Assembly: GCA_027323785.1 (NCBI GenBank)
Contig: DAHVZZ010000347.1
Coordinates: 1 to 27,876, forward strand
Length of the DNA: 27,876 nucleotides
Source: Acidobacterium sp.
GTDB taxonomy: Bacteria; Acidobacteriota; Terriglobia; Terriglobales; Acidobacteriaceae
Reading direction: 5' to 3'
The position numbers and the translations under genes are program-made. Numbering within the stretch: the first letter of the stretch is position 1; every line of letters starts with the position of its first letter. Of the stretch, positions 9,882 through 27,876 are shown in pieces. A model generated the notes under the pieces. The model was not told the DNA's origin, did not search any database, and worked only from the letters and a program-made list of their open reading frames with translations.

Positions 9882-9906
9882 GCGGGTCTGGAAGGGATTC
9901 GTTACA
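9882..9906 (-). promoter_or_regulatory. Candidate ECF-type promoter upstream of tolC
   Basis: Minus strand TGTAAC-N14-CCCGCTTT. The hexamer overlaps the sigma gene stop codon (CTG TAA C). Motif match only. Confidence 0.3.
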
Positions 9907-10774
9907 GGATTGCGGAAGAATTTTTTATGAGCCGCAGATACTCTTCCGTCAGCAGCCGCCGCAGCACCGGCGGAGCCGCCGCATCCGGGCACACTTCGAG
10001 CGACCGGCACCGGTCGATGGCCTGCTTCAGATCGCGAATGAATGCAACGCACGCCGGGCATCCCTCAATGTGCCGCCGCATCGCATCGCAGGTTTTCGGC
10101 TGCAGCTTGCCGTCCAGATAATCGGACAGGTTGGAAAAGATCTCGCGGCACTCAGCCGAGCGCTGCACAGGCTTTTTCCTGCCTTTCGGCCTCTTCTGCT
10201 CCTCATCGAGGACGCGCCCCATCTCCTGCCGGACCATCAGCCTGGCCCGATGCAGCCGCACGCGCACGGTAGCCGCCTGCAGGGACAGCACTCGCGCCAC
10301 CGTCTCCGTGTCCAGTTCCTCCATGTCGTGCAGCACCAGCACCAGCCGGTAGGGAACCGGCAGCCGAAGAACTGCCTCGTGCAGCATCCGGCGGTCCTGC
10401 CGGCTGGCCGCCTCCTTCTCCGGATTGGCTCCCGGATCAGCCAGCAGCAGCTCGTTGAGCTCCGTGTCGCTCGGCAGTAGATCCTCAAGAGCAATGGCTC
10501 GCCGATAGGAAGCCTTGCTCCGGTTGCGCAGGCATCGATTACGCGCCGCCGTATACAGCCACGCGCTCAGGGCCTTGGGGTCTTCCAGCTTCGCCAGATG
10601 CGGCAGCGAATGAAAAAGTACTTCCTGAACAGTGTCTTCCGCGTCCTCCCGATGCCCGCATACCTTCATACCGAACGACAGCACCGTTCGATGCAGCAAT
10701 TGCAGGGCGCGATCGATACTCTCAGCGTCGGACTTCCGCAGCAGCTCGATAGCCTGTCGCAGTTCAGGGCGCAC
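9902..10774 (-). CDS. ECF sigma-70 factor with fused C-terminal zf-HC2/ZAS domain
   Basis: Region 2 (DAEDTVQEVL, LSAWLYTAARNRC), region 4 (LPVPYRLVLVLHDMEELDTETVARVL, TVRVRLHRAR), then CREIFSNLSDYLDG..HIEGCPAC. Start GTG 10774 (MRPEL) preferred over TTG 10828. Confidence 0.9.
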   Translation of the reverse strand: MRPELRQAIELLRKSDAESIDRALQLLHRTVLSFGMKVCGHREDAEDTVQEVLFHSLPHLAKLEDPKALSAWLYTAARNRCLRNRSKASYRRAIALEDLLPSDTELNELLLADPGANPEKEAASRQDRRMLHEAVLRLPVPYRLVLVLHDMEELDTETVARVLSLQAATVRVRLHRARLMVRQEMGRVLDEEQKRPKGRKKPVQRSAECREIFSNLSDYLDGKLQPKTCDAMRRHIEGCPACVAFIRDLKQAIDRCRSLEVCPDAAAPPVLRRLLTEEYLRLIKNSSAIL

Positions 10775-10948
10775 GGGTTCAGCATTCCATCCGGAAAAGT
10801 CTCTGGCCCCATTGTAGACGGCCCGCAAGCTGACCCCAGGTTTCGGTCACTCCTCCTCGCATCCTCCGCCGCTCCGGCAATTACTGTCGATTCTGTAGTT
10901 TGCCCGAAACCCTCGACCCTCACCCTGCGTCGGCGTACTTTAGTGGGC

Positions 10949-13195
10949 ATGTCGCGGATCGCTCAGCTCATCCTCGCCCTCATCGTCGGTCTGGTGCTTC
11001 TCACCTGGGCCGCTTCGGGCGTGGTTGAGACCACGGCCCGCGAATGGTTCGAGCGCGACGTCAATTCCCGGGCCCGCCTGGTCCTCACCAGTGCCGGGCA
11101 ATCGCTCGCTCGTTCCTGGTATGAGCCGAAGGAACTACAGGCTCAGTTGCTGGCTATCACCCGCGACGAGCGCATTATTGGGGTGACCGCCTGCGATGCC
11201 GACCTCTCCGTCCGCTCCAGCACTCCCGGTTTCCCCAGCGAGTTCAACTGCGTGGAAGTGGGCTCCCGCATTCGCAGCGGCGAATCCTCGGCAGGCGACC
11301 CCAGCTATCCGTTCCATGGGTGGAGCACCGTTGCCTCCCTCCCCACCGGCCGTGTTCAGGTCAACGCCATGCCGGTCTTCGATCAGGGGCGTCAGCTCGG
11401 TTTCGTCATCCTCGTTCAGGATCTCAGCTACATCCGGCAGCGCGAATCCAGAGCCCGCAACTTTCTCATCATTATCTTCATCATCCTCGCCATCACCGCG
11501 TTCGGCGTTCCCATCGTCGTCGCCCGGCGTGCCCGCCAGGAGTGGAGCCTCGAGCTCCGCCGCCTGTTGCGCGGCGGCGGCCGCAAAAGCCGCGAGTTCC
11601 AGCCCATCCTCAGCGACATGCGCGAGCTCCTCTGGCGTATGTCCTCCGAACAGGAAGATGCTCCCGGCCAGTGGACCGCCGCCAGCCTCAGACAAACCCT
11701 CAACCTGCATCTTCACGGCGAAAAGGTCGTCATCCTCGCCAACCGCGAGCCCTACATGCATCAGCGCCTCGCCAACGGCGAGATCGAAGTGCAGCATCCC
11801 GCCAGCGGACTCGTAACCGCTCTCGAACCGGTCCTGCGTGCCTGCTCCGGCGTCTGGGTCGCCCACGGCAGCGGCACCGCCGATCGCGAGACCGTCGACC
11901 GTGGTGACCACGTCAGCGTCCCTCCCGGCGAGGAATCCTACCGCATCCGGCGCGTCTGGCTCACTGAGGACGAGCAGCAGGGCTACTACTACGGCTTTTC
12001 AAACGAGGGCATGTGGCCTCTCTGCCACGTTGCTCACGCCCGCCCCATCTTCCGCGTCGAGGACTGGCACCACTACCAGTCGGTCAACCAGCGCTTCGCC
12101 GACGTCGTCTGCGAGGAGGTCGATTCCTCCGATCCAATCATCCTCGTGCAGGATTATCACTTTGCCCTCGCGCCCGCCATGATCCGCAAACGCCTCCCTT
12201 CAGCCACCGTCATCATGTTCTGGCACATTCCCTGGCCCAATGCCGAACGCATGGGAATCTGCCCCTGGCGCAATGAGGTGCTGCAGGGCTTGCTCGGCAG
12301 CAGCATTCTCGGCTTCCACACCCGGCTCCACTGCAACAACTTTCTCGACTCCGTTGACCGCTATCTGGAAACCCGCATCGATCGCGAAAACAACGCCGTC
12401 GTGATGCAGGGCCACAGCACTCTTATCCGCCCTTACCCCATCGCCATCGAGTGGCCCAATCGCTGGGTCGAAACTTCCCCCAGCCCTGAAGACTGCCGCG
12501 CCCGGGTGTTCCGCGACCTCGGCCTCAGCTCTCACGCCCTCCTCGGCGTCGGTGTCGATCGCCTCGATTACACCAAGGGCGTCGAAGAGCGTCTGCTCGC
12601 CGTCGAACGCCTGCTCGAGCGGTTTCCGGAATTCCGCGGGCGCTTCAGCTTTGTTCAGCTTGCTGCTCCCAGCCGCACGCGGATCCAGCGCTATCAGGAC
12701 CTCAATGACGCCGTCGAAGCCATGGCCGCCCGCATCAATCAGCGCTTTGGACAGGATGGCTACTCGCCCATCATCCTGCTCCGCTCCCACCATGAGCCGC
12801 CCGAGGTCTTTCGCTACTTCCGTGCGGCCGACCTATGCTACGTAAGCAGCCTCCACGATGGCATGAATCTCGTCGCCAAGGAGTTTGTTGCCGCGCGCAC
12901 CGACCTCCGCGGAGTCCTCATCCTCAGCGAATTTACCGGCGCAGCTCGCGAACTCACCGAAGCGCTCATCGTCAACCCCTACGACTTCGAGGGCGCCAGC
13001 GAGGCGCTTGCGACCGCTCTCAAAATGCCCCGCGAAGAGCAGCAGGACCGTATGCGCTCCATGCGCGCCGTCCTCGCCCAGTTCAACATCTATCGCTGGG
13101 CGGGCAAAATGCTGGTGGACGCCGCCCGGCTCCGCAATCAGGAGCGTGTTGCCGAAAGGCTCGCCGAGCGCTCGCCGGCCTCGCCCTCCGCATAG
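10949..13195 (+). CDS. otsA: Trehalose-6-phosphate synthase (GT20) with N-terminal TM-extracytoplasmic-TM module
   Basis: GT20 motifs [56 protein letters not shown]. Preceded by about 250 aa containing two hydrophobic helices. ATG 10949 avoids overlap with the ECF gene. Confidence 0.9.
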
Positions 13196-13322: not shown

Positions 13323-13381
13323 CCTGCGCCGCAATCCACCCCCCTGTTTCCTGCAAGTTACGAAAAATGGCCTTCCCGATT

Positions 13382-13397
13382 TGGCGATTGGATTGCG
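13382..13397 (+). promoter_or_regulatory. Candidate sigma54 (-24/-12) promoter
   Basis: TGGCGATTGGATTGCG: GG (13383-84), N10, GC (13395-96), with TGGC and TTGC cores, about 100 bp upstream of the response regulator start. Confidence 0.45.
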
Positions 13398-13498
13398 AAC
13401 GGGAAGGCGGGCATTACCCAAAGCGATGTTTGGACCTCGCAGTACTGGACCGCTCGTACTGCTCACGCAAGCAACAGCTACTTGAGGAGAATAATCCT

Positions 13499-14332
13499 GT
13501 GAGCCTCCCAGCGATCGATCAGCATTTGAATTACGCCTCCGGCTTAAAACCCGCCCCCGGCCAACCCTCTCGCCTCTTTCTCCAGGAGCACCGGCAGGCG
13601 GTTCGCGTCGTCATCGCCGGCGGATATTCGATCTCCCGAGACGGCCTGCGCGAGCTGCTCAAAACCTCGGCCGAGATGCACGTCGTTGGCGAGGCTCCGG
13701 ATGGCGAAACCGCCCTGCGCATGGTCGATAGCTGCAGACCCGATGTCCTCGTGCTCGATCTTCCCATCCCCGGCCGCAGTGACAAGGAAATTCTCCGCGA
13801 AATTGCCGCTCGCTCCCTAGCCGTGCGCGTTCTCGTGCTGGCTCCGGTTCTCGACAGGCAGGAGATCCTCGCCGCGATTCAGCTGGGAGCCCGTGGCGTG
13901 GTATTGAAAAGCTCCGCCTCCACCCAGATGCTCTTCGAGGGGATCCGCAGGATCATGGCCGGACACTACTGGATCGGGCAGCAGGATGTCTCGACCCTGA
14001 TCGAAGTCCTCAAAAAAGCCCCATCCGAGCAGAATCCTCCCGCACCGCTCCGTCCCTATGGCCTCACGCCTCGTGAATTCGAGATCATCCCTCTCGTCGT
14101 CAGAGGCTATTCCAACGCCGAAATCGCGGAGACGCTCTCCATCAGCATCCAGACCGTCAAGCACCACTTCAGCCACATCTTCGACAAGCTCGGTGTCTAC
14201 AACCGTCTGGAGCTCGCCCTCTTTGCCATCAATCATCGCATCGTCGGAGAGAAGAGGCCATCCAGGTCCTGCCCTCCGAATGCGCCTGAGAGCGCATCTC
14301 CCTCAGTGCAGCCGATGGCACGCACCTCCTGA
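13499..14332 (+). CDS. NarL/FixJ-family response regulator (REC + LuxR HTH) with atypical receiver
   Basis: VVGEAPDG, PDVLVLDL, GARGVVLK, LTPREFEIIPLVVRGYSNAEIA..ISIQTVKHHFSHIFDKLGV. GTG 13499 follows RBS GAGGAG. Confidence 0.9.
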   Translation: MSLPAIDQHLNYASGLKPAPGQPSRLFLQEHRQAVRVVIAGGYSISRDGLRELLKTSAEMHVVGEAPDGETALRMVDSCRPDVLVLDLPIPGRSDKEILREIAARSLAVRVLVLAPVLDRQEILAAIQLGARGVVLKSSASTQMLFEGIRRIMAGHYWIGQQDVSTLIEVLKKAPSEQNPPAPLRPYGLTPREFEIIPLVVRGYSNAEIAETLSISIQTVKHHFSHIFDKLGVYNRLELALFAINHRIVGEKRPSRSCPPNAPESASPSVQPMARTS

Positions 14333-14473: not shown

Positions 14474-15826
14474 TTACCTGGAATTGGGCAGCCGCTCGTC
14501 TGCAAAAGGCTGGCCAGCCTCCGGCGACCCACTGCCCCCGCCCGTCCACAGCGTCATCGTGAAGGCGACCCGGCCTTCCTCGTTCCGGCTCACCCACAGG
14601 TCGCCACCGTGCGATCGCGCCACCGCTCGGGCGATGGCAAGGCCCAGCCCTGTTCCCGTCGGCTTCGTTGTAAAAAACGGCTCGAATATGCGCCCCAGCT
14701 GGCTGGCCGGAATGGCCGGCCCCGTGTTCTCAATGTCGATCCGCACGGAGCCGTCCTCCATTTCCGCGCCAATCCTGATCGCGCCCCGCGCCGGCGTCGC
14801 ATCCGCCGCATTCAGCGCCAGATTCAGCAGCGCGCCCTCCACTTGCGACGCATCCACCGATATCGTGATATCGTCCCTCGTGAAACACTCCACCTGAACC
14901 TCCTGCCCCGCCGTCCGCATGCGAACCGCGCTCTCCACCGCCGTGAGCAGGTCGCCGATCAGCGTCGGTGTTCGATGCGGAATCCTCGGCCGCGCATACG
15001 TCAGAAAATCCGTCGTCAGCGACTCCAGACGCCCCGCCTGCCGCCCGGCGATCGCAAACATCTCCTCTCTCTCCCTGGCCGGAGTGGACGCATCCGCCGC
15101 CGTGCTCAGCGCGCTCAGGATCATCGCCACTGGATTCCGGATCTCATGGGCAATCCCGCTGGCCAGCCGCCCAACCGCCGCCAGCTTCTCTTCGCTCACC
15201 AGCTGCTCCCGCGCGCTGTGCAGGTCCACCAGCGCGCTCGATAGGTGGCTCTGCTTGCCGCGCAGCTGCGAGACCAGAAACCACACCAGCGTTCCCATCA
15301 GCGCGAAGATGATCGCCAGCATTCCCGCTTCCAGATACTCGGATCTCGAAGCCGGAGGATGCAGCGTAAAGTAATGCCACAGCCACAGGAAGATTCCCGC
15401 ATCCGCGGCCACAATCGTGGAGATCGTGACCCTCAGCCCAAACAGAAAGGCGGATTGAAGAACCGGAATCGCGAGCAGGACCTGATAGGGGCTGTGATCC
15501 TGATTCGTCAGCCACGCCAGCAGCGCTGCCAGCGCAAACAGCATCAGGATCGAGGCCGCTCCGTCCCACTTCGCAGCCCTGTCGCTGAGCGGAGCTGTGC
15601 TGCTTTGCAGCCAGGTCAGCTCTGCCAGCCGGACCACAAAGCTCAGTCCCAGCACCAGCAGCACCGCCATCGAAGGCTGCCCCAGCACAAACGCAAAAAG
15701 CGAGTGCAGCAGCAGCAGCATCGCCAGCACGAACAGCGTCAGAATACAAAATGCGGTTTGCTGTTTTCGCAGATCCTCGGCATGCTCCGTCGGCATCGCC
15801 CCTGCGTGAATGCTCTTACTCTCCAC
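14474..15826 (-). CDS. Membrane-bound sensor histidine kinase (HisKA + HATPase_c, NtrB-like)
   Basis: Multi-TM N-terminus; H box AHEIRNP, N box LLNLALNA, ENTGPAI, FEPFFTTKPTGTGLGL. Alternative ATG at 15796. Confidence 0.92.
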   Translation of the reverse strand: MESKSIHAGAMPTEHAEDLRKQQTAFCILTLFVLAMLLLLHSLFAFVLGQPSMAVLLVLGLSFVVRLAELTWLQSSTAPLSDRAAKWDGAASILMLFALAALLAWLTNQDHSPYQVLLAIPVLQSAFLFGLRVTISTIVAADAGIFLWLWHYFTLHPPASRSEYLEAGMLAIIFALMGTLVWFLVSQLRGKQSHLSSALVDLHSAREQLVSEEKLAAVGRLASGIAHEIRNPVAMILSALSTAADASTPAREREEMFAIAGRQAGRLESLTTDFLTYARPRIPHRTPTLIGDLLTAVESAVRMRTAGQEVQVECFTRDDITISVDASQVEGALLNLALNAADATPARGAIRIGAEMEDGSVRIDIENTGPAIPASQLGRIFEPFFTTKPTGTGLGLAIARAVARSHGGDLWVSRNEEGRVAFTMTLWTGGGSGSPEAGQPFADERLPNSR

Positions 15827-18015: not shown

Positions 18016-18162
18016 CCGGAGCAAATCCCCGCCGCGTTCTGCTATCGCAAAATCCTTCGCGAAGCGCGGGTGACTCCGGTCACATACGTGCAGCCACGGT
18101 CACCATAGACTCTCGGCGAGCGAACGTGGCCATTCACCATCTCGCCGCTCCGGAGTTGCGCC

Positions 18163-20823
18163 ATGCCCGATCAGGAAATGATGCAACCGAAGCCGGAAAC
18201 TGCACGAGGAAAACCATCGCTGGACCCGCGCCTGCGGGCATTCTCCAGGCGCAGCGCCAGGCGCACGTTTTTCGCCCTCCTGCCGCCATTTCTTGCCGCG
18301 GCTCTGCAGAATCTGCTCTGGGGCGTGGTTCATCCATTTGCCTGGTTCCTTTCCTACCCCGCCGTTTTCTTCAGTTCCTGGTTCGGCGGCTTCCGCACCG
18401 GCCTCGCCGCAACTGTCATCAGTGCCCTGCTGGAGTGGTGGTTCTTCGTCCCGCCCGTGCACAACTTTCTGAAAAGCGACCTCCGGCTTCTCGTTCCAGC
18501 TGCCCTCTTCATCTCCACGGGCATTCTGTTCAGCCTCTTTCATGAGCGGCTCAGAAGATCCATCCGGGCGACTTCCGATGCCCTCGCCGAGCGCTCCCGG
18601 GCGGAGGCCGCCCTTCGCGAAAGCGAGAACAGCCTCCGTCGCGCCCAGGCCATCGCCCGGCTCGGCAGCTGGCGGCTCGATCTTTCCACCCATCGCCTCG
18701 TCGTCTCCGAGGAGTTTCCCCGCATTCTGGGTCTGGATCCGGAGGAACCTCTGGACTGGGAATCCTTCCGGGGCGTGGTTCACCCCGAAGATCGAGAGCG
18801 GGTTGAGCTGGCCTGGGCTCAGGCCCTCCGCGGAACGCCCTATGACATCGAGCATCGCATCGTTCCCCACGGCCAGGTCCTGTGGGTCCGCGAAATTGCT
18901 CAGGTGGAGTTCGACGCCACTGGCCGGCCCATCAGAGGCATCGGTACCGTCCAGGACATCACCCCTCGCAGAACCGTTCAGAACCGCCTCGAACTGATCT
19001 ATCGCGCCAACCGCGCCCTCAGCAAATGCAATCAGGCGCTGGTCCGCGCTACCGAGGAAGCTACGCTCCTCCAGCAAATCTGCGACATCGTCGTCCAGGA
19101 CGCGGGCTATCCGCTCTGCTGGGTGGGGCGGGCCGAGCAGGACGAAGCGCGTTCCGTGAGCGTCATCTCCCAGGCCGGATGGCAGAGCGGCTATCTCGAC
19201 GGGATTCAGATCACCTGGGCCGACTCCGAGCGAGGTCAGGGGCCAACCGGCACCTCCATTCGCACCCGAAAGATCGTTGCCGTCAGGGATATCGCCGCTG
19301 ACCCCCAGATGGCTCCCTGGCGAAACGAGGCCCTGCACTATGGCTACGCCTCCTGCCTGGCTCTGCCCCTGTTGCTCGAGGACCAAATCTTCGGCGCGCT
19401 GACTGTCTATGCTCCCGAACCCGACGCCTTTGGCCCCGAAGAAATCGCCCTCCTTTCCGAACTCGCCGGCGACCTCGCCTTTGGCATCTCCGCCTTGCGG
19501 ACTCGCGCCAGGCGCGCCGAAGCCGAGCAGGAACTCCTCTCCTTCAATGCCGAACTCGAGCAGCGCGTCCGCGCCCGCACCGAAGAGTTGCAGCAGGCCC
19601 GCGAACGCGAGGGCGAGATCGGCAATCGCATTCAGCAGAGCCTGCTGCTCGATCAGCCGCCCGCGCATCTGTCGTCCCTCAGCATCTCCGCGCTCAGCCT
19701 GCCCACCGAACGCATCGATGGCGACTTCTATGCGTTCGTCGAGCCGCGCGAAGGCTCGCTCGATGTGATCGTCGGAGACGTGATGGGCAAAGGCGTGCCT
19801 GCTGCGCTGCTGGGCGCGGCCACCAAGACCCATTTCCTTAAGGCCCTCGGCCATCTCACCGCCGGCGCCGCCGGCCCTCCCGAACCCCGCGAAGTCGTCA
19901 TGCGGACGCACGCCGAAATCGCCCACCGGCTCGTCGAACTCGAAAGCTTCGTCACCCTCTGCTATGCCCGCATCGACACCCGCAGAAGCCGCATCGATCT
20001 GGTCGACTGCGGCCATACCGGCGTCATCCACCTCCATGCCGCGACATCCCAGGCCAACCTCCTCCACGGAGACAACCTGCCTCTCGGCGTGCGTGAAGAA
20101 GAAGTCTATGACCAGATTTCCGCCACCATCGAATCCGGAGACATGCTGGTCTTCTTTTCCGACGGCATCACCGAAGCCCGCAATCCCGACGGAGATCTCT
20201 TCGGCATCGGACGCCTCCTCGACCGGGTTTGCAGCCTCGGCAGCGCCGCGCCCGCCGACCTCGTCAATGCCATCCGCGCCGCCGTCGCGGACTTCTGTCT
20301 CTGCCGCCATCTCGGCGACGATCTCACCGTCGTCGCCGTTCGCATCGAAGAAGTTGGAATCCCCGTCGCCCACGACGAATTCGCCATTGCCAGCGATCTG
20401 ACCGAGTTGCATCGCGTGCGCGAATTTGTGCGGGCCTTTTCCGGCAGTGCCTCGGCGCCTCTGCTCCCGCCTGAAGCGGTTCACGAGCTCGCCCTCGCCG
20501 CCAACGAGGTCGCCAGCAACATCGTGAAACATGCCTGCCGCGGCCAGCGCCATCGGCTGGTCGAAGTCGATGCCGAAGCCTACCCCGGACGCGTCATCGT
20601 TCGCCTCCGCCATTCCGGCGCCGTCTTCGTTCCGCCGCCTCCCTCGCTGCCCGCGCTGGATCTTCCGCGTGAGTCCGGCTTCGGCCTCTACATGCTCACC
20701 AAATCGGTGGACGAGGTCCACTACTACCGCGATGACCTCGGCAAAAGCTGTATCGCCCTCGTCAAATATCGCAACAACCGCACTCCCATCGGGAAAGTGA
20801 GGACAGATGGATATCCCGACTGA
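18163..20823 (+). CDS. SpoIIE/PP2C phosphatase fused to RsbW-like kinase domain (DUF4118-PAS-GAF-PP2C-HATPase_c)
   Basis: DUF4118 (YPAVFFSSWFGGFRTGL), PAS (VHPEDRERV..DIT), GAF (GQGPTG), PP2C (GDFY, GDVMGKG, FSDGITEA, DDLT), HATPase (ELALAANEVASNIVKHA, ESGFGLYML). RBS GGAG. Confidence 0.92.
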   Translation: MPDQEMMQPKPETARGKPSLDPRLRAFSRRSARRTFFALLPPFLAAALQNLLWGVVHPFAWFLSYPAVFFSSWFGGFRTGLAATVISALLEWWFFVPPVHNFLKSDLRLLVPAALFISTGILFSLFHERLRRSIRATSDALAERSRAEAALRESENSLRRAQAIARLGSWRLDLSTHRLVVSEEFPRILGLDPEEPLDWESFRGVVHPEDRERVELAWAQALRGTPYDIEHRIVPHGQVLWVREIAQVEFDATGRPIRGIGTVQDITPRRTVQNRLELIYRANRALSKCNQALVRATEEATLLQQICDIVVQDAGYPLCWVGRAEQDEARSVSVISQAGWQSGYLDGIQITWADSERGQGPTGTSIRTRKIVAVRDIAADPQMAPWRNEALHYGYASCLALPLLLEDQIFGALTVYAPEPDAFGPEEIALLSELAGDLAFGISALRTRARRAEAEQELLSFNAELEQRVRARTEELQQAREREGEIGNRIQQSLLLDQPPAHLSSLSISALSLPTERIDGDFYAFVEPREGSLDVIVGDVMGKGVPAALLGAATKTHFLKALGHLTAGAAGPPEPREVVMRTHAEIAHRLVELESFVTLCYARIDTRRSRIDLVDCGHTGVIHLHAATSQANLLHGDNLPLGVREEEVYDQISATIESGDMLVFFSDGITEARNPDGDLFGIGRLLDRVCSLGSAAPADLVNAIRAAVADFCLCRHLGDDLTVVAVRIEEVGIPVAHDEFAIASDLTELHRVREFVRAFSGSASAPLLPPEAVHELALAANEVASNIVKHACRGQRHRLVEVDAEAYPGRVIVRLRHSGAVFVPPPPSLPALDLPRESGFGLYMLTKSVDEVHYYRDDLGKSCIALVKYRNNRTPIGKVRTDGYPD

Positions 20824-21145
20824 ACAAAAGGGTAATGTCACAGTCGCTTCAATTTCGGTGAAGGAGCTGGACGCGGGCAATGTCGGCGACTTCAGACGTT
20901 CTCTCGTGCCCGTTCTTGAATCCTCGACCCACCTCGTCATGGACCTGACCCGCCTTGAGTTCGTTGACAGTTCAGGCCTGGGCGCCATCCTTTCCTGCCT
21001 GCGTCAGCTCAGCGCCAAAGGTGGCGACCTCAAGCTCTGCTGTATGACCACTCAGGTCCGCTCTGCCTTCGAGCTGGTCCGAATGCACCGCATCTTCGAT
21101 ATCTTCGATACGCCCGGCGAGGCAATCGCCGCTTTCGCAGGCTGA
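20807..21145 (+). CDS. STAS-domain anti-sigma factor antagonist (RsbV/SpoIIAA-like)
   Basis: ELDAGNV, LVMDLTRLEFVDSSGLGAI (phosphorylatable Ser motif), VRSAFELVRM..IF.IF. Overlaps the upstream gene by 17 bp. Confidence 0.95.
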   Translation: MDIPTEQKGNVTVASISVKELDAGNVGDFRRSLVPVLESSTHLVMDLTRLEFVDSSGLGAILSCLRQLSAKGGDLKLCCMTTQVRSAFELVRMHRIFDIFDTPGEAIAAFAG

Positions 21146-21158
21146 AGGAGGAGCTGCC

Positions 21159-23609
21159 ATGGCCGCGCAGTTAACCGCCGATGACAATGTATACGGCCTG
21201 CAACAGGCAATCTGCCGCCACGCCGTCGAATCGCTCGGACAGGACTGGCGCGATCTTTCCCTGGTCGACCGCTTCCATGCCGTGGCTCTCGCTGTGCGCG
21301 ACCGCATGATCGCCGGCTCTCTCGAAACCGAGAAGCGCTATCGCCAGAACAAATGCAAGCGCCTTTACTATCTCTCTATCGAATACCTCATCGGCCAGTC
21401 GCTCGGCGCCAATCTTCGTAGCCTGGGCCTCTATGACGCATGCCGTCAGGCGGTGGCGAATCTCGGCGGAGACCTGATGTCAATCGAGAATACCGAACCC
21501 GACGCCGCCCTGGGCAACGGCGGACTCGGCCGCCTCGCCGCCTGCTTCCTCGACTCTCTCGCCACCCTCGGCATGCCCGGCTTTGGCTACGGCATCAACT
21601 ATGAGTACGGCCTTTTCCGCCAGGAAATAGAAAACGGCTACCAGCGCGAAATGCCGGATAACTGGCTCGCCCAGGGCAGCCCCTGGCAGATTCCCCGTCC
21701 CGGCGAAACCTGCATCGTTCCCATCTATGGCCATATTGAGGAAGCCGTCGACCGCCACGGTGTCTATAACCCCATGTGGATGGGCTGGCGCGTGATTGTC
21801 GGCTTTGCCTGGGACATGCTGGTGCCCGGCTATGGCGGCCGCGCCGTTCATCCCCTCCGCCTCTATTCCGCCCGCGCTTCCCGCGAATTCGATATGCAGA
21901 TCTTCAATGACGGAGACTACTTCCGCGCCGTCGAGCAGAAAATCCAGTCGGAGATCATTTCAAAAGTCCTTTACCCGTCGGACGCGGTTGTTGCCAATCA
22001 GGAACTGCGCCTCGTTCAGGAATACTTCCTCGTCGCCTGTTCCCTTCGCGACATCCTGCGCCGCTTCCAGCGCGACTACAGCGACTTCCACGACCTTCCC
22101 GCTCACATCGCCATCCAGCTCAATGACACGCATCCCACTCTCGCCATCGTGGAGCTCCTGCGCATCCTCGTCGATGAAAAGGAGCTTCCCTGGGAGGAAG
22201 CATGGGAGATCACCCAAAAGACTTTCGCCTATACCAACCACACGCTCTCGTCTGAGGCTCTCGAGCGCTGGCCCGTGCCCCTCCTCAGCCGCGTATTGCC
22301 CCGTCATCTCCAGCTCATCGTCGAGATCGATCGTCGCTTCCGCCAGCAGATCACCGCCATCTCCCCGCCGCCTCCGGTAGCGGCAGAGCAGCTGGCCATC
22401 GTCGGCGGATTCGAGCCTCAGCAGGTCCGCATGGTCAATCTCGCCGTCGTCGGCAGCCACTCCGTCAATGGCGTATCCCCGATCCACAGCGGTCTCCTGC
22501 AGACGACTCTCCTCTCCGGCTTCCACGCCTTGTGGCCCGAAAAGTTCAACAACAAGACGAATGGCATCAGCCCGCGACGCTGGCTCCTCCATGCCAATCC
22601 TTCGCTGGCCCGCCTCATCACTTCAGCTATCGGCGATCGATGGATCACTGATCTGGAGCAGTTGCGCACCCTGGGCGATTTCGCCGGCGACTCCGCCTTG
22701 CAGCAGTCGCTCCGCGACGTGAAACACGCCAACAAACAGGCGCTCGCGGCGCTGGTCCGCGATCAGCTCCGCCTTTCCCTGGATCCCGCCTCGCTCTTCG
22801 ATGTCCAGATCAAACGCATCCACGCCTACAAGCGCCAGATCCTCAATGTACTGCACATCGTCTACGACTACCTCGTCCTGGTGGAAGATGGTGTCGCGCC
22901 ATCCATTCCGCGCACCTGGATCCTCGCCGGAAAAGCCGCACCCGGATACTGGCTTGCCAGGCAGATCATCAAGCTCATTCACGAAGTCGGCCGGATTGTG
23001 AATACAAATCCCCGCGCCGCCGACTGGATGAAAGTCGTCTTTATCCCTGACTACCGTGTTTCCCTCGCCGAAAAAATCATCCCCGCCGCCGATATCAGCG
23101 AACAAATCTCCACCGCCGGAACGGAAGCCTCTGGTACGGGCAATATGAAGCTGGCTCTCAACGGAGCCGTCATGGTTGGCACTCTTGACGGCACGAACCT
23201 CGATATCCGCGACGAAGTCGGCGAGGACAATATCTTTCTCTTCGGCCTTCATGCCAGTGAGTTGCAGGCCATGCGTGCCTCCCACGCCTATCATCCCCGC
23301 CAGCTCTGCCAGCAGGATGCGCGCCTCCAGCGCGTGGTCGATGCATTGCGTGCCAACCGGTTTTGTCCAGGCCAGCCAGGACTCTTCTCCTGGGTCGAGC
23401 AGATCATCCTCAACGATGCCGACGAGTACTTTCATCTCGCCGACCTGCCCCCTTACCTCGCCGCTCATCAGCGTTCCGCCGAGGCATTCCTCGACGCCAG
23501 CCGCTGGACGCGCATGTCTCTCATGAACATTTCCCGCGTCGGTCGCTTCTCCAGCGATCGCACCATCAGCGAGTACGCGCGCGACATCTGGGATATCCAT
23601 CCCTGCTGA
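21159..23609 (+). CDS. glgP: Glycogen/maltodextrin phosphorylase
   Basis: YYLSIEYLIG, LGNGGLGRLAACFLDS, QLNDTHP, AYTNHT, NKTNGISPRRW, KRIHAYKRQ, EASGTGNMK (PLP Lys), RFSSDRTI. RBS AAGGAGG. Confidence 0.97.
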   Translation: MAAQLTADDNVYGLQQAICRHAVESLGQDWRDLSLVDRFHAVALAVRDRMIAGSLETEKRYRQNKCKRLYYLSIEYLIGQSLGANLRSLGLYDACRQAVANLGGDLMSIENTEPDAALGNGGLGRLAACFLDSLATLGMPGFGYGINYEYGLFRQEIENGYQREMPDNWLAQGSPWQIPRPGETCIVPIYGHIEEAVDRHGVYNPMWMGWRVIVGFAWDMLVPGYGGRAVHPLRLYSARASREFDMQIFNDGDYFRAVEQKIQSEIISKVLYPSDAVVANQELRLVQEYFLVACSLRDILRRFQRDYSDFHDLPAHIAIQLNDTHPTLAIVELLRILVDEKELPWEEAWEITQKTFAYTNHTLSSEALERWPVPLLSRVLPRHLQLIVEIDRRFRQQITAISPPPPVAAEQLAIVGGFEPQQVRMVNLAVVGSHSVNGVSPIHSGLLQTTLLSGFHALWPEKFNNKTNGISPRRWLLHANPSLARLITSAIGDRWITDLEQLRTLGDFAGDSALQQSLRDVKHANKQALAALVRDQLRLSLDPASLFDVQIKRIHAYKRQILNVLHIVYDYLVLVEDGVAPSIPRTWILAGKAAPGYWLARQIIKLIHEVGRIVNTNPRAADWMKVVFIPDYRVSLAEKIIPAADISEQISTAGTEASGTGNMKLALNGAVMVGTLDGTNLDIRDEVGEDNIFLFGLHASELQAMRASHAYHPRQLCQQDARLQRVVDALRANRFCPGQPGLFSWVEQIILNDADEYFHLADLPPYLAAHQRSAEAFLDASRWTRMSLMNISRVGRFSSDRTISEYARDIWDIHPC

Positions 23610-23641
23610 TCGCCCGCGCAGACGCCGGCATGTTCGGCAAT

Positions 23642-23839
23642 CTACGTGTGCTCGGGATTCGAGCCCGGTTCGGGAAAGTCGGAGTCTGCCTCTTTGATCA
23701 GCGGATCGGATTCCCGATGGGGCAACTGTCCGGCGAGCCGGTCGTGTGCTTCTCCGGGCTTGGAGGCATTCGTGCCAGGCGCGGTATCTTCTGTCGCACC
23801 CTTCCTGATGTCCGAGTTTTTGGGAGTCCTGCCGGTCAT
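23642..23839 (-). CDS. Small (65 aa) hydrophilic hypothetical protein
   Basis: ATG 23839 with RBS GGAGGAG. Sequence MTGRTPKNSD...RLAGQLPHRESDPLIKEADSDFPEPGSNPEHT. This is the C-terminal part of track ORF 23642..24436. Confidence 0.6.
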   Translation of the reverse strand: MTGRTPKNSDIRKGATEDTAPGTNASKPGEAHDRLAGQLPHRESDPLIKEADSDFPEPGSNPEHT

Positions 23840-24089
23840 AGCTCCTCCAGTGCGGGAATCGGCGTACCGAAACGTGGATGCCGGTTGGGCATCGCGGCGC
23901 TGCCTGCGAATGGCCCGCATGCCATCCCGCGTTCTGTCGCGCTCTCTTTGCGCGAACGATCGAACGCTCGCAATTCTACTTCCCCCGGCGCGCTCTGCCC
24001 CTGGGCTGGAACTTGCAGGAGCCATTACGCCGGATTCGCCATCGTCCGTTCCATGCCTCGAAGAAGGGCCAGCCGAAGAAGCACTCCCC

Positions 24090-24728
24090 TCACGCGCCTC
24101 TGCGCTGCAGGTCCCTCTCCTGTTGCAGATAAATGCGATGATCGGCCCAGGAGATGCACCGAACCCAATCCGCCGGCACCATTGTGGCCTGATCGAGCAG
24201 CCATGTCTCGCCCTGAATGTCCAGAAATCCGATGCGCCAGTTGTGTTCATCCACTGCGAATCCCTGAAGTGTTCCGAGTCGCCCGTGGTTGCCCCACACT
24301 TCGTATCCCAGAAGGTATCCCACACTCCGCAGGTGCGGATCTTCCGTCGGGGGCACAGGATACAAAACTCCCGTCGGCAGCGACGTCGTCCCCAGCTCCT
24401 GGTCCACCCAGCAGGCCATCCGCCCAAAATACGCACGCATTGCGAGCTCCTGCTGCCGTGACACAGGCTTATGCGTATCCGCCGGGGGGCTTTCCTGTAT
24501 TTGTCGCCGGGTCAGGCGAACCCGAAAGATTCGCGACTCCCAGTTGAGCCGCTCGATGGCTTCGACCGGGACGATCACTTCCTGACGGCCCAGCCAGCTA
24601 CCAACGTCGACCACCATATAGCGGATCAGCCACGACTGGTCATCGAACAGGAAGGTCCCGATAGTGCCTACCCTTCCATCTGTCGCCAGAATCCTGGAAC
24701 CAATAAGATGCTTCAATTCGTGCAGCAT
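24090..24728 (-). CDS. PRC-barrel domain protein (tandem PRC repeats)
   Basis: LIGSRILATDGRVG..FLFDDQSWLIRYMVVDVGSWL, DPHLRS, and a second degenerate repeat. ATG 24728 with RBS GGAGGG. Confidence 0.85.
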   Translation of the reverse strand: MLHELKHLIGSRILATDGRVGTIGTFLFDDQSWLIRYMVVDVGSWLGRQEVIVPVEAIERLNWESRIFRVRLTRRQIQESPPADTHKPVSRQQELAMRAYFGRMACWVDQELGTTSLPTGVLYPVPPTEDPHLRSVGYLLGYEVWGNHGRLGTLQGFAVDEHNWRIGFLDIQGETWLLDQATMVPADWVRCISWADHRIYLQQERDLQRRGA

Positions 24729-24783
24729 AAGCCCTCCCCGCTGGAACGCTGCGCGCGCCAGGACAGAGCAATAAATCGTGCAG

Positions 24784-26259
24784 TTATGTGGCCCGCCGCG
24801 CCTTGCCTGGGGTTTTTGCGGCGGATATCTGTGCCATCGTCGACTTCGGTGTTTCCAGATACGAGCTAAATAGCTCGCACCAGCGAAATACATTCTCGTT
24901 GCGAACCTTGCGGCGCAACTTCCGCATCCGGCGCACCCGTTCGCGGGGATCCATGCTGAAGGCTTCGCACAGCGCTTCGGCCACCGCCTGGATGTCATAC
25001 GGATTCACCAGAATGCTCCCGTTGCGCAGCTGCTCGGCGGCTCCCGCGAATTCGCTCAGGATCAGCACCCCCTGGTCGCCAACCTGCGATGCGCAAAATT
25101 CCTTGGCGACAAGATTCATTCCGTCCTTCAGCGGCGTGATCAGTGCGATGTCTGCGGCTCGGTACAGCGCCAGCAGCTCAGGCCGGACCAGCGGGCGATG
25201 GATGTAGTGAATCGGCATCCACCCCGGATCGCCAAACTGACCGTTGACCTGGCTGACGAGCGTTTCGATCTCCAGACGCAGCTCGCGGTATTTGGGGATG
25301 TTCTCCCGGCTCGGAACCACAATCTGCACCAGACTCAGTTGGCGGCGCATTTCCTTATGGCTCGCCAGAAGATGCTGAAAAGCCTTCAGCCGGTCGGGAA
25401 CGCCCTTCGTGTAATCCAGACGATCGACGCCCAGCACCAGCTGTCGTCCGCGCATGTCTCGCCGGATTTCCGCCGCACGCTGCGCCACGATGGGCTGCTC
25501 GGACTGGCTGGCAAATTCGTCGAAGTCGATGCCGATCGGATAGCTGCGGATGTGCGTCACGCGATTGCCCGAATCGGTATGCACCTCATCGTCGCGGCGC
25601 TGAATCTCGACATCCGGCAGAAACTGGCGCACGCAGCTCAGAAAGTTGCGCTGGTCCCGTGGCGTCTGAAACCCAACCGCGTCGAACTGCAGAATCCCCC
25701 GCAGAATCTGGCTGCGCCATGGAAGCTTTTCAAAGATGTCCAGCGGCGGAAACGGAATGTGCAGGAAGAACCCAACCCGGCAGTGCAGCCCCTGATTGCG
25801 CAGATATTCGCCGACCAGCATCAGGTGATAGTCGTGCACCCATATCACCGACTCCGGCCTCGCAACTCGCACCACCGCGTCGGCGAATTTGCGGTTGACG
25901 TTGACGTAAGCCTTCCAGTACGTCGGATCGAAATTGCAGCGCGACTGAAGATCGTGAAACAGCGGCCACACAATCTCATTCGAGAACCCGGCATAGAATC
26001 CCTTTCGTTCCGCTGCCGTGAGCGAAACAGAGATCAGATGATAGCCGTGCTCTGAATGGCTCTCCTCAAGAAGCCGATCGATGTCGTCTTCATACCCTTC
26101 GCCCGCCCACCCGATCCAGTATCCCTTGCGGGTTTTCAGAACCGGCCGCAGAGCTGTTACCAGCCCCCCGGAACTCGGATTCAGGATCGGGCCGGACGGA
26201 CCCATTTCAATGGTTGTCGGCAGCCGGTTGGAAACCAGAATCAGATCGCCCTGCTTCAT
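24784..26259 (-). CDS. otsA: Trehalose-6-phosphate synthase (canonical soluble OtsA)
   Basis: [74 protein letters not shown] 26259 with RBS GGAGGG and ATGA overlap with otsB. Confidence 0.95.
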   Translation of the reverse strand: MKQGDLILVSNRLPTTIEMGPSGPILNPSSGGLVTALRPVLKTRKGYWIGWAGEGYEDDIDRLLEESHSEHGYHLISVSLTAAERKGFYAGFSNEIVWPLFHDLQSRCNFDPTYWKAYVNVNRKFADAVVRVARPESVIWVHDYHLMLVGEYLRNQGLHCRVGFFLHIPFPPLDIFEKLPWRSQILRGILQFDAVGFQTPRDQRNFLSCVRQFLPDVEIQRRDDEVHTDSGNRVTHIRSYPIGIDFDEFASQSEQPIVAQRAAEIRRDMRGRQLVLGVDRLDYTKGVPDRLKAFQHLLASHKEMRRQLSLVQIVVPSRENIPKYRELRLEIETLVSQVNGQFGDPGWMPIHYIHRPLVRPELLALYRAADIALITPLKDGMNLVAKEFCASQVGDQGVLILSEFAGAAEQLRNGSILVNPYDIQAVAEALCEAFSMDPRERVRRMRKLRRKVRNENVFRWCELFSSYLETPKSTMAQISAAKTPGKARRAT

Positions 26260-27053
26260 CGCGTCCCTCCGGTGCATTCCAGCCATGTGCGGAGAAAATC
26301 CAGCAGCTCCTGTGGCGGGCGGATCCAGCACTGGGCATGCGTTTCCCGCCATGCGGAGCGAACCAGCACCGTCAGGGCGCCCGTGTCGCGAAGCGCCAGA
26401 AAAGCATCCTCGTCCGTCGTATCGTCGCCCAGATAAGCGAGCGGCGTGCCCGGCTCAAGCTCGCCCAGCAAAACGCGAACCGCGCTCCCTTTGTTCGGTT
26501 CCGAGGGACGCAGTTCGATGCCCCCGTCGAACTCCAGCAGTGCGATCCCTGTGCGCTCGGCGATGGAAGCGAAAGCGCTGTGTGCTTCGGCGGTCAGCTT
26601 CTCCACCTGATCCCTGGCTTGCCCGCGCCAGTGCAGCGCAACGCTGCCCGGCTTGAATTCCGCCATCCCGCGCAAATCGCGGCCGTCGATCCACGTCGTG
26701 GCTTCATCGAGTGCCGCGCGATCCGCGGGACGGATCTCCGCCATCTCCGAGCTGCCATCTGGCCGCAGCCGCTGCCGTCCATGCGCTCCCCAGATTTCAG
26801 GCGCTGGTTCCACTCCAAGCAGGCGGCGCACTTCCTCTGCCGGCCGGCCGCTGATCAATACCACCCGGGTCCGCCCCCAGGCCTGAATGTCGCGAATCAG
26901 AGCCGCCACGCCGGGGTAGGGAACTGCCGCATCGCGATCCACCTGAAACGGAGCCAGCGTTCCGTCGTAGTCGAGTGCCAGCGCGCCGTCTCCGCGCGAA
27001 CGCAGCCGCTCGAAGAAGGGCCTAAATTGAAGATGTGGCTCTATCTCCTCCAT
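26256..27053 (-). CDS. otsB: Trehalose-6-phosphate phosphatase (HAD family)
   Basis: LDYDGTL (HAD motif I), LISGR, GAHG, EFKPGSVALHWR, NKGSAV, YLGDDTTDEDAF. Confidence 0.95.
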   Translation of the reverse strand: MEEIEPHLQFRPFFERLRSRGDGALALDYDGTLAPFQVDRDAAVPYPGVAALIRDIQAWGRTRVVLISGRPAEEVRRLLGVEPAPEIWGAHGRQRLRPDGSSEMAEIRPADRAALDEATTWIDGRDLRGMAEFKPGSVALHWRGQARDQVEKLTAEAHSAFASIAERTGIALLEFDGGIELRPSEPNKGSAVRVLLGELEPGTPLAYLGDDTTDEDAFLALRDTGALTVLVRSAWRETHAQCWIRPPQELLDFLRTWLECTGGTR

Positions 27054-27189
27054 CTCTTTCTCTTATAACAAGCGGCCAGGTGCGATGCGGCACATCATGG
27101 GCTCTGGTGAAATTATCCTTGCTGCGCGCCGAAGACAAATTGTCAGCACTATGCCTGCGCCCCGCAGCGTCAAAGGAGTCAAAAGAACC

Positions 27190-27876
27190 TTAACGTTTCT
27201 GCCCGGCGATGACGGGATCGATCCAGGGTCCGTCCTGGCCGATTAACTGACCCGCCTCTTCCGGTCCCCACGTCCCGGGTAGATAGGAATAGGCCGGAGT
27301 TACGTTGCCCAGAACCGGCGTAACCACCCGCCATTGCGCCTCCACCAGATCCTGCCGCGAGAACAACTCGCTGCTGCCGCGGCTCGCGTCTCCCAGCAGC
27401 CGCTCGTACGGCGGCATGTCATCCATTGCCTGGCGATGAAGATCCAGCTCCACGTCCCGGCCAATCATCCGTTCCCCCGGTACCTTCACGCGCACGCCCA
27501 GACCGATCGCGAAATCCGGGCTCACCCGGATGCGCATGTGCGCCGATCCCGTCGGCACGATCTCGCCAAACGTCTCGCGCGGCGGACGCTTGAACTCCAC
27601 CGTGGCCTCCGTGCATGTCACCGGCAGCATCTTCCCCGCGCGCACGTAAATCGGAACCCCCGCCCAGCGCCAGCTGTCGATGTGCAGCCGAATGGCGACA
27701 AATGTTTCCACGTTTGACCCGGGCGACACTCCCGCAACCGATCGGTATCCCTCGTACTGTCCCCGCACCACCGCATCCGGCGTCAGCGGACGAATCGCGC
27801 GCATCAGTTCCGCCTTGCGGTTGCGCGTCGCATCGCGATCTTCGCCCGTCGGAGGATCGATCGTCAGGTTGGCCAC
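27190..27876 (-). CDS. zwf: Glucose-6-phosphate 1-dehydrogenase, C-terminal part (5' end beyond window)
   Basis: VVRGQY.GY, VETFVA, WRWAGVPIYVRAGK, PYERLLGDA..G....F.R.D.VEAQW, Y..GTWGP. Confidence 0.93.
   Translation of the reverse strand: MANLTIDPPTGEDRDATRNRKAELMRAIRPLTPDAVVRGQYEGYRSVAGVSPGSNVETFVAIRLHIDSWRWAGVPIYVRAGKMLPVTCTEATVEFKRPPRETFGEIVPTGSAHMRIRVSPDFAIGLGVRVKVPGERMIGRDVELDLHRQAMDDMPPYERLLGDASRGSSELFSRQDLVEAQWRVVTPVLGNVTPAYSYLPGTWGPEEAGQLIGQDGPWIDPVIAGQKR

Follow-up and report, generated by a model that had tools for sequence, protein, structure and literature searches.

Soluble trehalose-6-phosphate (T6P) synthases of the OtsA/Tps1 type, represented by the M. thermoresistibile (5JIJ) and E. 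coli (1GZ5/1UQU) enzymes, are full GT-B glycosyltransferases of family GT20. The gene analyzed here, P0001, lies at positions 10949-13195 of the forward strand in a 27,876-nucleotide stretch of Acidobacterium sp. DNA (assembly GCA_027323785.1, contig DAHVZZ010000347.1; the whole stretch is called the window), and its product shares with these enzymes the complete GT-B GT20 domain, the catalytic residues and, in most of its relatives, linkage to otsB. Unlike them, it carries a 258-residue N-terminal module built of a transmembrane segment (TM1), a predicted PDC domain, a second transmembrane segment (TM2) and a linker. The fusion also has PASGL in place of GGL, is 37% identical to the soluble paralogue of its own window, and falls under the NCBIfam equivalog cut-off. 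The order TM1, long helix, PDC fold, TM2 and cytoplasmic helix-turn-helix is that of WalK (YycG)- and CitA/DcuS/KinD-type sensor kinases, whereas the fusion has no HisKA, HATPase or sequence-detectable HAMP, its output is a metabolic glycosyltransferase, and its outer domain is only 8-20% identical to known sensor domains. Cache/PDC receptor enzymes (diguanylate cyclases, HD-GYP proteins and adenylate cyclases) and LapD likewise place a periplasmic PDC-type domain, two transmembrane segments and a cytoplasmic enzyme in one chain, but they make or degrade second messengers, whereas the fusion would make a compatible-solute intermediate.

Two further systems are comparable in function or gene order. 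The OtsA of Arthrobacter sp. A3 is a soluble protein. It is reported to be an osmotic stress sensor and a morphogenetic scaffold (PMC5685639); it resembles the fusion in that an OtsA is proposed to sense stress and to adjust its own behavior accordingly, and differs in that the available part of that report mentions no membrane sensor module. In betaproteobacteria, a GH15 trehalase-otsA-otsB cluster has been described (Ramlibacter tataouinensis Rta_36480-36500; PMC3164672). This is the three-gene trehalose module found at many relatives of the fusion; it is broken up in this window, and the available part of its description mentions no membrane-sensor synthase.

We lean, by a small measure, toward reading P0001 as a one-component transmembrane receptor-enzyme, that is, a membrane-anchored T6P synthase gated by a signal from outside the cell. 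The 748-residue protein is organized as TM1, an extracytoplasmic domain of ~145 residues, TM2, a linker of ~65 residues and a complete GT20 domain. The features are listed below, with the basis of each assignment; AF2 stands for AlphaFold2 and dN/dS for the ratio of nonsynonymous to synonymous substitution rates.

10949-13195, + strand: whole gene P0001, a membrane-anchored, putatively sensor-linked GT20 trehalose-6-phosphate synthase (stop-free translation, 748 aa)
10958-11026, + strand: TM1, residues ~4-26, continuous with the long helix that opens the outer domain (Kyte-Doolittle peak 2.47; AF2 single helix over residues 3-55)
11027-11461, + strand: predicted extracytoplasmic PDC/single-Cache-like domain, residues 27-171 (AF2, Foldseek, VIA-align; dN/dS 0.14)
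11192-11194 and 11249-11251, + strand: cysteine pair C82 (ACD) and C101 (NCV) (translation)
11462-11524, + strand: TM2, residues 172-192 (Kyte-Doolittle peak 3.06; inside a continuous predicted helix, 160-208)
11525-11722, + strand: conserved cytoplasmic linker, residues 193-258 (invariant residues, dN/dS 0.08, AF2)
11723-13123, + strand: complete GT20 (OtsA-type) catalytic domain, residues 259-725 (Pfam PF00982, E 9e-119)

An initial annotation, made from the letters of the window, had described this layout from TM1 to GT20 at 10949-13195, and hydropathy, Pfam and the starts of homologues agree with it. A longer open frame from 10598 exists, but it runs into a divergent extracytoplasmic-function (ECF) sigma gene at 9902-10828(-), and homologues from Acidobacteriota, Myxococcota, Binatia and Pseudomonadota have a start equivalent to 10949, just ahead of TM1; for both reasons, the start is taken as 10949. 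When a mine-drainage metagenome run was assembled independently, one contig spanned 10707-14400 with six differences, and the same architecture occurs in 77 other genomes; the fusion is therefore not a chimera or an assembly artefact. GT20 is the sole Pfam domain of the protein, which contains no HisKA, HATPase_c or MCP signaling output. A promoter and terminator scan gave nothing beyond chance, and Rfam detected no riboswitch or other RNA element upstream of the gene, either here or in eight related loci. The initial annotation knew of no characterization of the architecture, and no description of a membrane-sensor OtsA was found in full-text literature, most subscription journals lying outside the reach of the search. 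The membrane-sensor OtsA is thus a real, conserved and apparently unstudied variant.

At the enzyme end of the fusion, PF00982 matches at 397.7 bits (cut-off 32.5) over profile positions 2-471 of 473, the predicted local distance difference test (pLDDT) of the AF2 model is mostly 85-97 over this domain, and among solved structures M. thermoresistibile OtsA comes closest (5jij, E 3e-82). R266, G287, D402, H404, H426, R538, K543, R576, D637 and E645 align with residues of that enzyme and do not vary among 34 sequences drawn from four phyla. The set comprises the Arg of ANR, the Gly of the Gly loop, the Asp and His of xDYH, the His of HIP, the Arg and Lys of DRLDYxKG, the phosphate-binding Arg, and the Asp and Glu of DGMNLVAKE. 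As judged from these residues, the GT20 domain is catalytically complete, in keeping with the intact catalytic and substrate motifs noted initially. The ‘SG’ loop remarked upon at the same time is also real: every family member reads PASGL, with the first Gly replaced by Ser. G287, the Gly that remains, corresponds to M. thermoresistibile Gly39, a residue absolutely conserved among functional OtsAs (PMC6879718).

Several scores bear on whether the product is T6P at all. A GT20 enzyme making glucosylglycerol-phosphate or another sugar phosphate would be consistent with the equivalog result, since NCBIfam OtsA model TIGR02400 gives 411.2 bits, under its cut-off of 564.85, and a match to the GgpS model reaches 305 bits; the invariant, family-specific PASGL loop may be counted on the same side, as may the donor-preference positions (PMC6879718), where L571 and E619 are ADP-glucose-like and H615 resembles neither type. 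Yet TIGR02400 is the best-scoring single-enzyme model, the donor- and acceptor-contact residues of OtsA (PMC6879718) are all kept in the window protein when aligned to 5jij and are constant in the 34 sequences, and the linked genes encode trehalose-phosphate phosphatase and a trehalase-like GH15 protein, so that a different product appears extremely unlikely. An assignment of the donor nucleotide from the three determinant positions was also attempted; the residues are mixed, and no call was made.

Upstream of the enzyme, hydropathy in a 19-residue window reveals only two peaks, at residues ~4-26 and ~172-192, which with the outward segment between them bears out the sensor-kinase-like topology first proposed for this protein. 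Residues 27-171 are placed outside because GT20 needs cytoplasmic sugar nucleotides and glucose-6-phosphate, and this holds whether TM1 is kept or cleaved; cleavage as a signal peptide, at an AAS/G site, is possible from the sequence. In the AF2 model of residues 1-258, built on a 39-sequence alignment, pLDDT is ~90 over residues 40-160, and the outer domain is predicted to run from a long helix through a short helix, two strands, a helix and three strands to the long helix that becomes TM2.

Two structural searches, independent of each other, place this model among sensor inputs. First, Foldseek, which the initial annotation had suggested for detecting a Cache/PDC fold, returned the sensor domains of WalK, KinD, PctC and CitA. 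Against the PDB, the outer domain matched WalK/YycG at E 4e-5 to 6e-5, with TM-scores of 0.59-0.68 by target, and also KinD, PctC, Mlp24 and CitA, while the full WalK model 9a5d aligned across 259 columns at E 1.7e-8. Second, VIA-align ranked WalK 4ywz first among 48,161 chains (Z 13.4, root-mean-square deviation 2.5 Å, 131/147 residues), followed by KinD, a Desulfohalobium receptor, Mlp24, DctB and CitA, with WalK, KinD, 5ere and Mlp24 spanning Z 13.4-12.0. AlphaFold DB clusters matching residues 1-256 consist of histidine kinases, HAMP, GGDEF and HD-GYP proteins; the first-ranked match, 19% identical, is also named a trehalose-phosphate synthase. Language-model neighbors of the module include sCache_3 and HAMP+Cache_WalK clusters. 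The predicted structure also has the general plan of such domains, a long N-terminal helix and then a five-stranded antiparallel sheet with helices at its flanks, set between two TM helices. A PDC/single-Cache fold of the kind used as input by sensor kinases and chemoreceptors is thus well supported as a prediction for the outer domain.

The same ranking raises a reversed arrangement, as in LapD, in which substrate or product occupancy of GT20 would be relayed outward and the periplasmic domain would bind or release a partner. A LapD orthologue is represented among the VIA-align matches by its periplasmic output domain (4u64, Z 10.0), and W125, a Trp past the variable loop, is conserved in at least 90% of 34 cross-phylum sequences. 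WalK-type and other input domains nonetheless outscore 4u64, no conserved periplasmic partner gene is linked, and the retention of all catalytic residues, together with the fusion being the sole OtsA in several genomes, argues that catalysis is primary. Signaling from inside to outside is accordingly rated a most improbable function.

The cysteines C82 and C101 are invariant in 39 acidobacterial homologues. In the wider alignment, the single sequence without them, a homologue from a Pseudomonadota metagenome-assembled genome (MAG; L070:37-2286), has both outer-domain cysteines replaced, by Tyr and Ser, with the rest of the module kept. Their joint loss fits an extracytoplasmic disulfide pair, and a C82-C101 disulfide probably stabilizes the outer domain. 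This naturally Cys-less homologue provides a natural test of the disulfide requirement.

In the proposed mechanism, the linker would relay the signal to the enzyme. Among the 39 acidobacterial homologues, W199, G211, F217, Q218, P219, R225, W242, L247 and L251 are invariant. The predicted elements are a helix (up to residue 208), a Gly-rich turn (209-217) with EFQP, a second helix (218-235) and a helix at 244-255 that enters β-1 of GT20. Identification of the linker as a HAMP domain was rejected on sequence grounds: hhalign against ten genuine HAMPs of the same genome gave a Prob of 0.3%, compared with 98.8% in a positive control of HAMP half versus half, and in the non-significant alignment the connector of the linker is ~6 residues shorter than that of the HAMP profile. 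The linker thus lies in the HAMP position, yet by sequence it is no HAMP.

Regulation of the enzyme by an outside signal is plausible, given the architecture and its conservation. Gating is inferred because the module superposes on kinase inputs, the linker is under almost the same constraint as the enzyme, and the linker joins the mobile N-domain of GT20. Several observations weigh against this reading. The extracellular signal of WalK is itself not clear, so the best structural match points to no ligand. No Pfam Cache or PAS model scores above threshold for the outer domain of the window protein; matches in a few of the 39 homologues are sub-threshold (dCache_3 0.018, PAS_4 0.0023, GAF_PdtaS 0.0046). 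Among the best 150 of 726 profile matches to the module, no output other than GT20 was found, unlike typical sensor domains. In the linker, Pfam HAMP is undetected even at E up to 10 in the window protein and the 39 homologues, and pLDDT in the full-length model falls below 50 for residues 205-237 (~86 for 244-255); since the linker fails the HAMP sequence tests and is modeled at such low confidence, any transmission path through it is putative. Lastly, the sequence is absent from the three metatranscriptomes of the source study, which is not evidence of silence.

Some of these observations would equally suit a plain membrane tether, in which the N-terminal module only anchors and oligomerizes a constitutive OtsA at the inner membrane, so that trehalose is made where membranes need protection or beside a transporter, the outer domain being structural or partner-binding. 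The presence of one output on the module (best 150 of 726 matches) fits such an anchor, as do a linker with no recognizable signaling domain and the fact that the membrane-proximal helices are the most conserved parts of the module. WalK-type outer domains act partly via partner proteins, and the top Foldseek match is a WalK-YycH model. However, a mere anchor needs neither a folded domain of 145 residues with a conserved Cys pair and a dN/dS of 0.14, nor a linker constrained almost like the enzyme at 0.08, and it is the whole TM-PDC-TM-helical-linker unit that superposes on kinase and cyclase input modules. We therefore regard the tether as unlikely, though the likeliest of the rivals to the receptor-enzyme.

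The constraint just cited was estimated from 22 independent pairs; dN/dS rises from 0.05 in GT20 through 0.08 in the linker to 0.14 in the outer domain, and the values are approximate because synonymous divergence is near saturation. Purifying selection along the whole fusion protein is strongly supported by these comparisons. The family itself is patchy, as the fusion occurs in 8 of 301 evenly sampled genomes of Acidobacteriota. A survey across phyla, also envisaged in the initial annotation, located it in Acidobacteriota, Myxococcota, Binatia and Pseudomonadota: the module is present in 77 species-level genomes, mostly Terriglobales and Bryobacterales, with further carriers in Binatia, Myxococcota, Acidiferrobacterales and another Pseudomonadota MAG. 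In the databases, 474 proteins match the N-terminal module; those listed are ~745-750 aa long, contain GT20, and are named only ‘trehalose-6-phosphate synthase’ at the source. A profile search of 1.84 billion representatives gave the 726 matches mentioned above, many of them fragments, and among the best 150 those of at least 300 aa run into GT20, except four (313-409 aa) without a GT20 match. The isolate Anaeromyxobacter oryzae Red232, with a complete genome (L076, NZ_AP025591.1; also G001:C1:1502206-1504371), has two fusion copies and one soluble GT20; otsB lies 38 nucleotides downstream of one copy. Across phyla, identity to the window protein is 67-77% in GT20, 33-48% in the outer domain and 37-52% in the linker, while the soluble paralogue in the window is 37% identical to the GT20 of the membrane copy by BLASTP. 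This difference points to a single origin of the fusion followed by its spread.

The trehalose genes of the window and of related loci define the pathway in which the fusion acts. Neighbors in the related loci were scored from genes filtered by GC content at third codon positions (GC3) and by tblastn. In the window, the relevant genes are:

26256-27053, - strand: otsB, trehalose-phosphate phosphatase (Pfam PF02358, E 2e-19); no other otsB in the window
24784-26352, - strand: soluble canonical otsA paralogue (Pfam PF00982, E 2e-146)

These form a soluble otsB-otsA pair at 24784-27053(-), 11.6 kb from the fusion gene, as stated in the initial annotation. The fusion is an orphan here, with no adjacent otsB, the gene lying ~13 kb off in the soluble operon. 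The listed soluble otsA frame overlaps otsB by 97 nucleotides and its GT20 match begins at residue 37, and the true start of otsA is therefore probably further downstream than the listed one. Besides the fusion and the soluble otsA, no GT20 gene was detected in this genome, which is 81% complete. As the window holds no other otsB, the one at 26256-27053 likely dephosphorylates T6P from both synthases.

In related loci, otsB is directly downstream of the fusion in 40 of the 61 that could be scored, 36 of these on the same strand, and most same-strand otsB starts overlap the stop codon of the fusion by a few nucleotides; the two genes are taken to be translationally coupled in roughly two thirds of the loci. 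In 27 of 68 loci, a GH15 gene with a trehalase-like N-domain (TREH_N) stands upstream in divergent orientation. Of five genomes tested that have a linked otsB, four contain no GT20 gene besides the fusion; of five with an orphan fusion, a soluble otsA adjoins otsB in four, and all five have a single otsB. On the evidence of these loci, the fusion with otsB is the ancestral and commonest context, and the orphan copy of the window is a derived state. The earlier remark that no otsB stands beside the gene is thus true of the window, but in most of the scored related loci otsB is adjacent. Because of the linked otsB, the GH15 trehalase-like gene and the genomes in which the fusion is the sole OtsA, the normal job of the fusion is taken to be trehalose synthesis, and an enzymatic role in that pathway is well supported by gene content.

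These contexts also bear on whether the T6P from the orphan copy serves inside the cell as a second messenger instead of a trehalose precursor. T6P is regulatory in plants and fungi. No otsB is adjacent in the window, and 21 of the 61 scorable related loci likewise have none adjacent. Accumulated T6P is toxic in mycobacteria (PMC6879718), which may be counted for the same view. Set against it, the commonest context is a fusion overlapping otsB, often with the GH15 trehalase-like gene and often as the sole OtsA; genomes with an orphan copy retain one otsB able to serve both synthases; and the gene has no linked candidate for a T6P receptor. A signaling role for T6P, which the initial annotation had offered as one outcome, is highly improbable on this evidence. 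The sensor-kinase-like topology, the predicted PDC/Cache fold and the complete GT20 of that interpretation have been retained.

Several other genes of the window are of interest in their own right. The divergent gene at 9902-10828(-), separated from the fusion gene by a 120-nucleotide gap, combines ECF sigma regions 2 and 4 with a C-terminal zf-HC2 anti-sigma-type zinc finger in one polypeptide. Downstream, 13367-14332(+) encodes a LuxR-type response regulator with a receiver domain only from ~residue 89, and convergent with it, 14474-15826(-) encodes a membrane histidine kinase without a recognized sensor domain. A functional tie of the fusion to the ECF sigma gene upstream or the LuxR regulator downstream was considered and rejected, as neither is conserved in related loci. 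Farther on, the 886-residue product of 18163-20823(+) unites a DUF4118 membrane domain, PAS, GAF, a SpoIIE/PP2C phosphatase and an RsbW-like HATPase_c_2 in one chain, and so joins a partner-switching phosphatase to an anti-sigma-type kinase. The antisense open reading frame at 18100-20988(-) is longer but probably spurious, since Pfam does not match it and its GC3 signal is weaker. A carbohydrate cluster at 21159-27876 surrounds the soluble otsA/otsB pathway. Its other genes, and a transaldolase gene elsewhere in the window, are:

1262-2269: transaldolase
21159-23609, + strand: glycogen phosphorylase
24090-24998, - strand: PRC-barrel protein
27190-27876, - strand: glucose-6-phosphate dehydrogenase, C-terminal part

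Returning to the receptor-enzyme, we used the predicted structure to outline how gating might proceed. The stricter version, a true one-component receptor in which the PDC domain responds to a cue from the envelope or periplasm and exerts allosteric control over the GT-B enzyme via a previously unclassified helical linker, falls a little short of an even chance. A dimer would form through the long sensor helices, and an extracytoplasmic or envelope cue, the obvious guesses being desiccation and osmotic or ionic change, would then displace TM2 together with the conserved helical linker. The linker enters β-1 of the GT20 N-domain ~10 residues before the catalytic R266 and ~30 residues before the mobile PASGL loop. 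In OtsA, α-helix 1 and the Gly loop shift by up to ~12 Å when the enzyme closes on its substrates (PMC6879718). A shift of the linker could bias this open-to-closed transition and hence T6P output, and OtsB would turn the resulting T6P into trehalose. In this genome, the fusion would be a second synthase beside the soluble otsBA, adding a fast, transcription-independent input to trehalose.

Against drying, salt and acid stress, trehalose is one of the principal protectants of bacteria in soil and mine drainage, and to our knowledge its rapid switching-on is poorly understood beyond E. coli and actinobacteria. If the proposed gating is true, the output of this receptor-enzyme would be a metabolic step of compatible-solute synthesis, in place of a phosphorelay or a second messenger, giving a short circuit from environment to metabolism without a kinase, a regulator or a transcription step. 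In genomes that also have a soluble OtsA, the fusion would open a separate route by which trehalose is made independently of transcription. Allosteric control of a GT-B glycosyltransferase across the membrane would be rare, and the fusion would lend itself as a tractable model of how PDC sensors drive outputs other than kinases; the cultured A. oryzae Red232, with its two copies, makes the idea directly testable.

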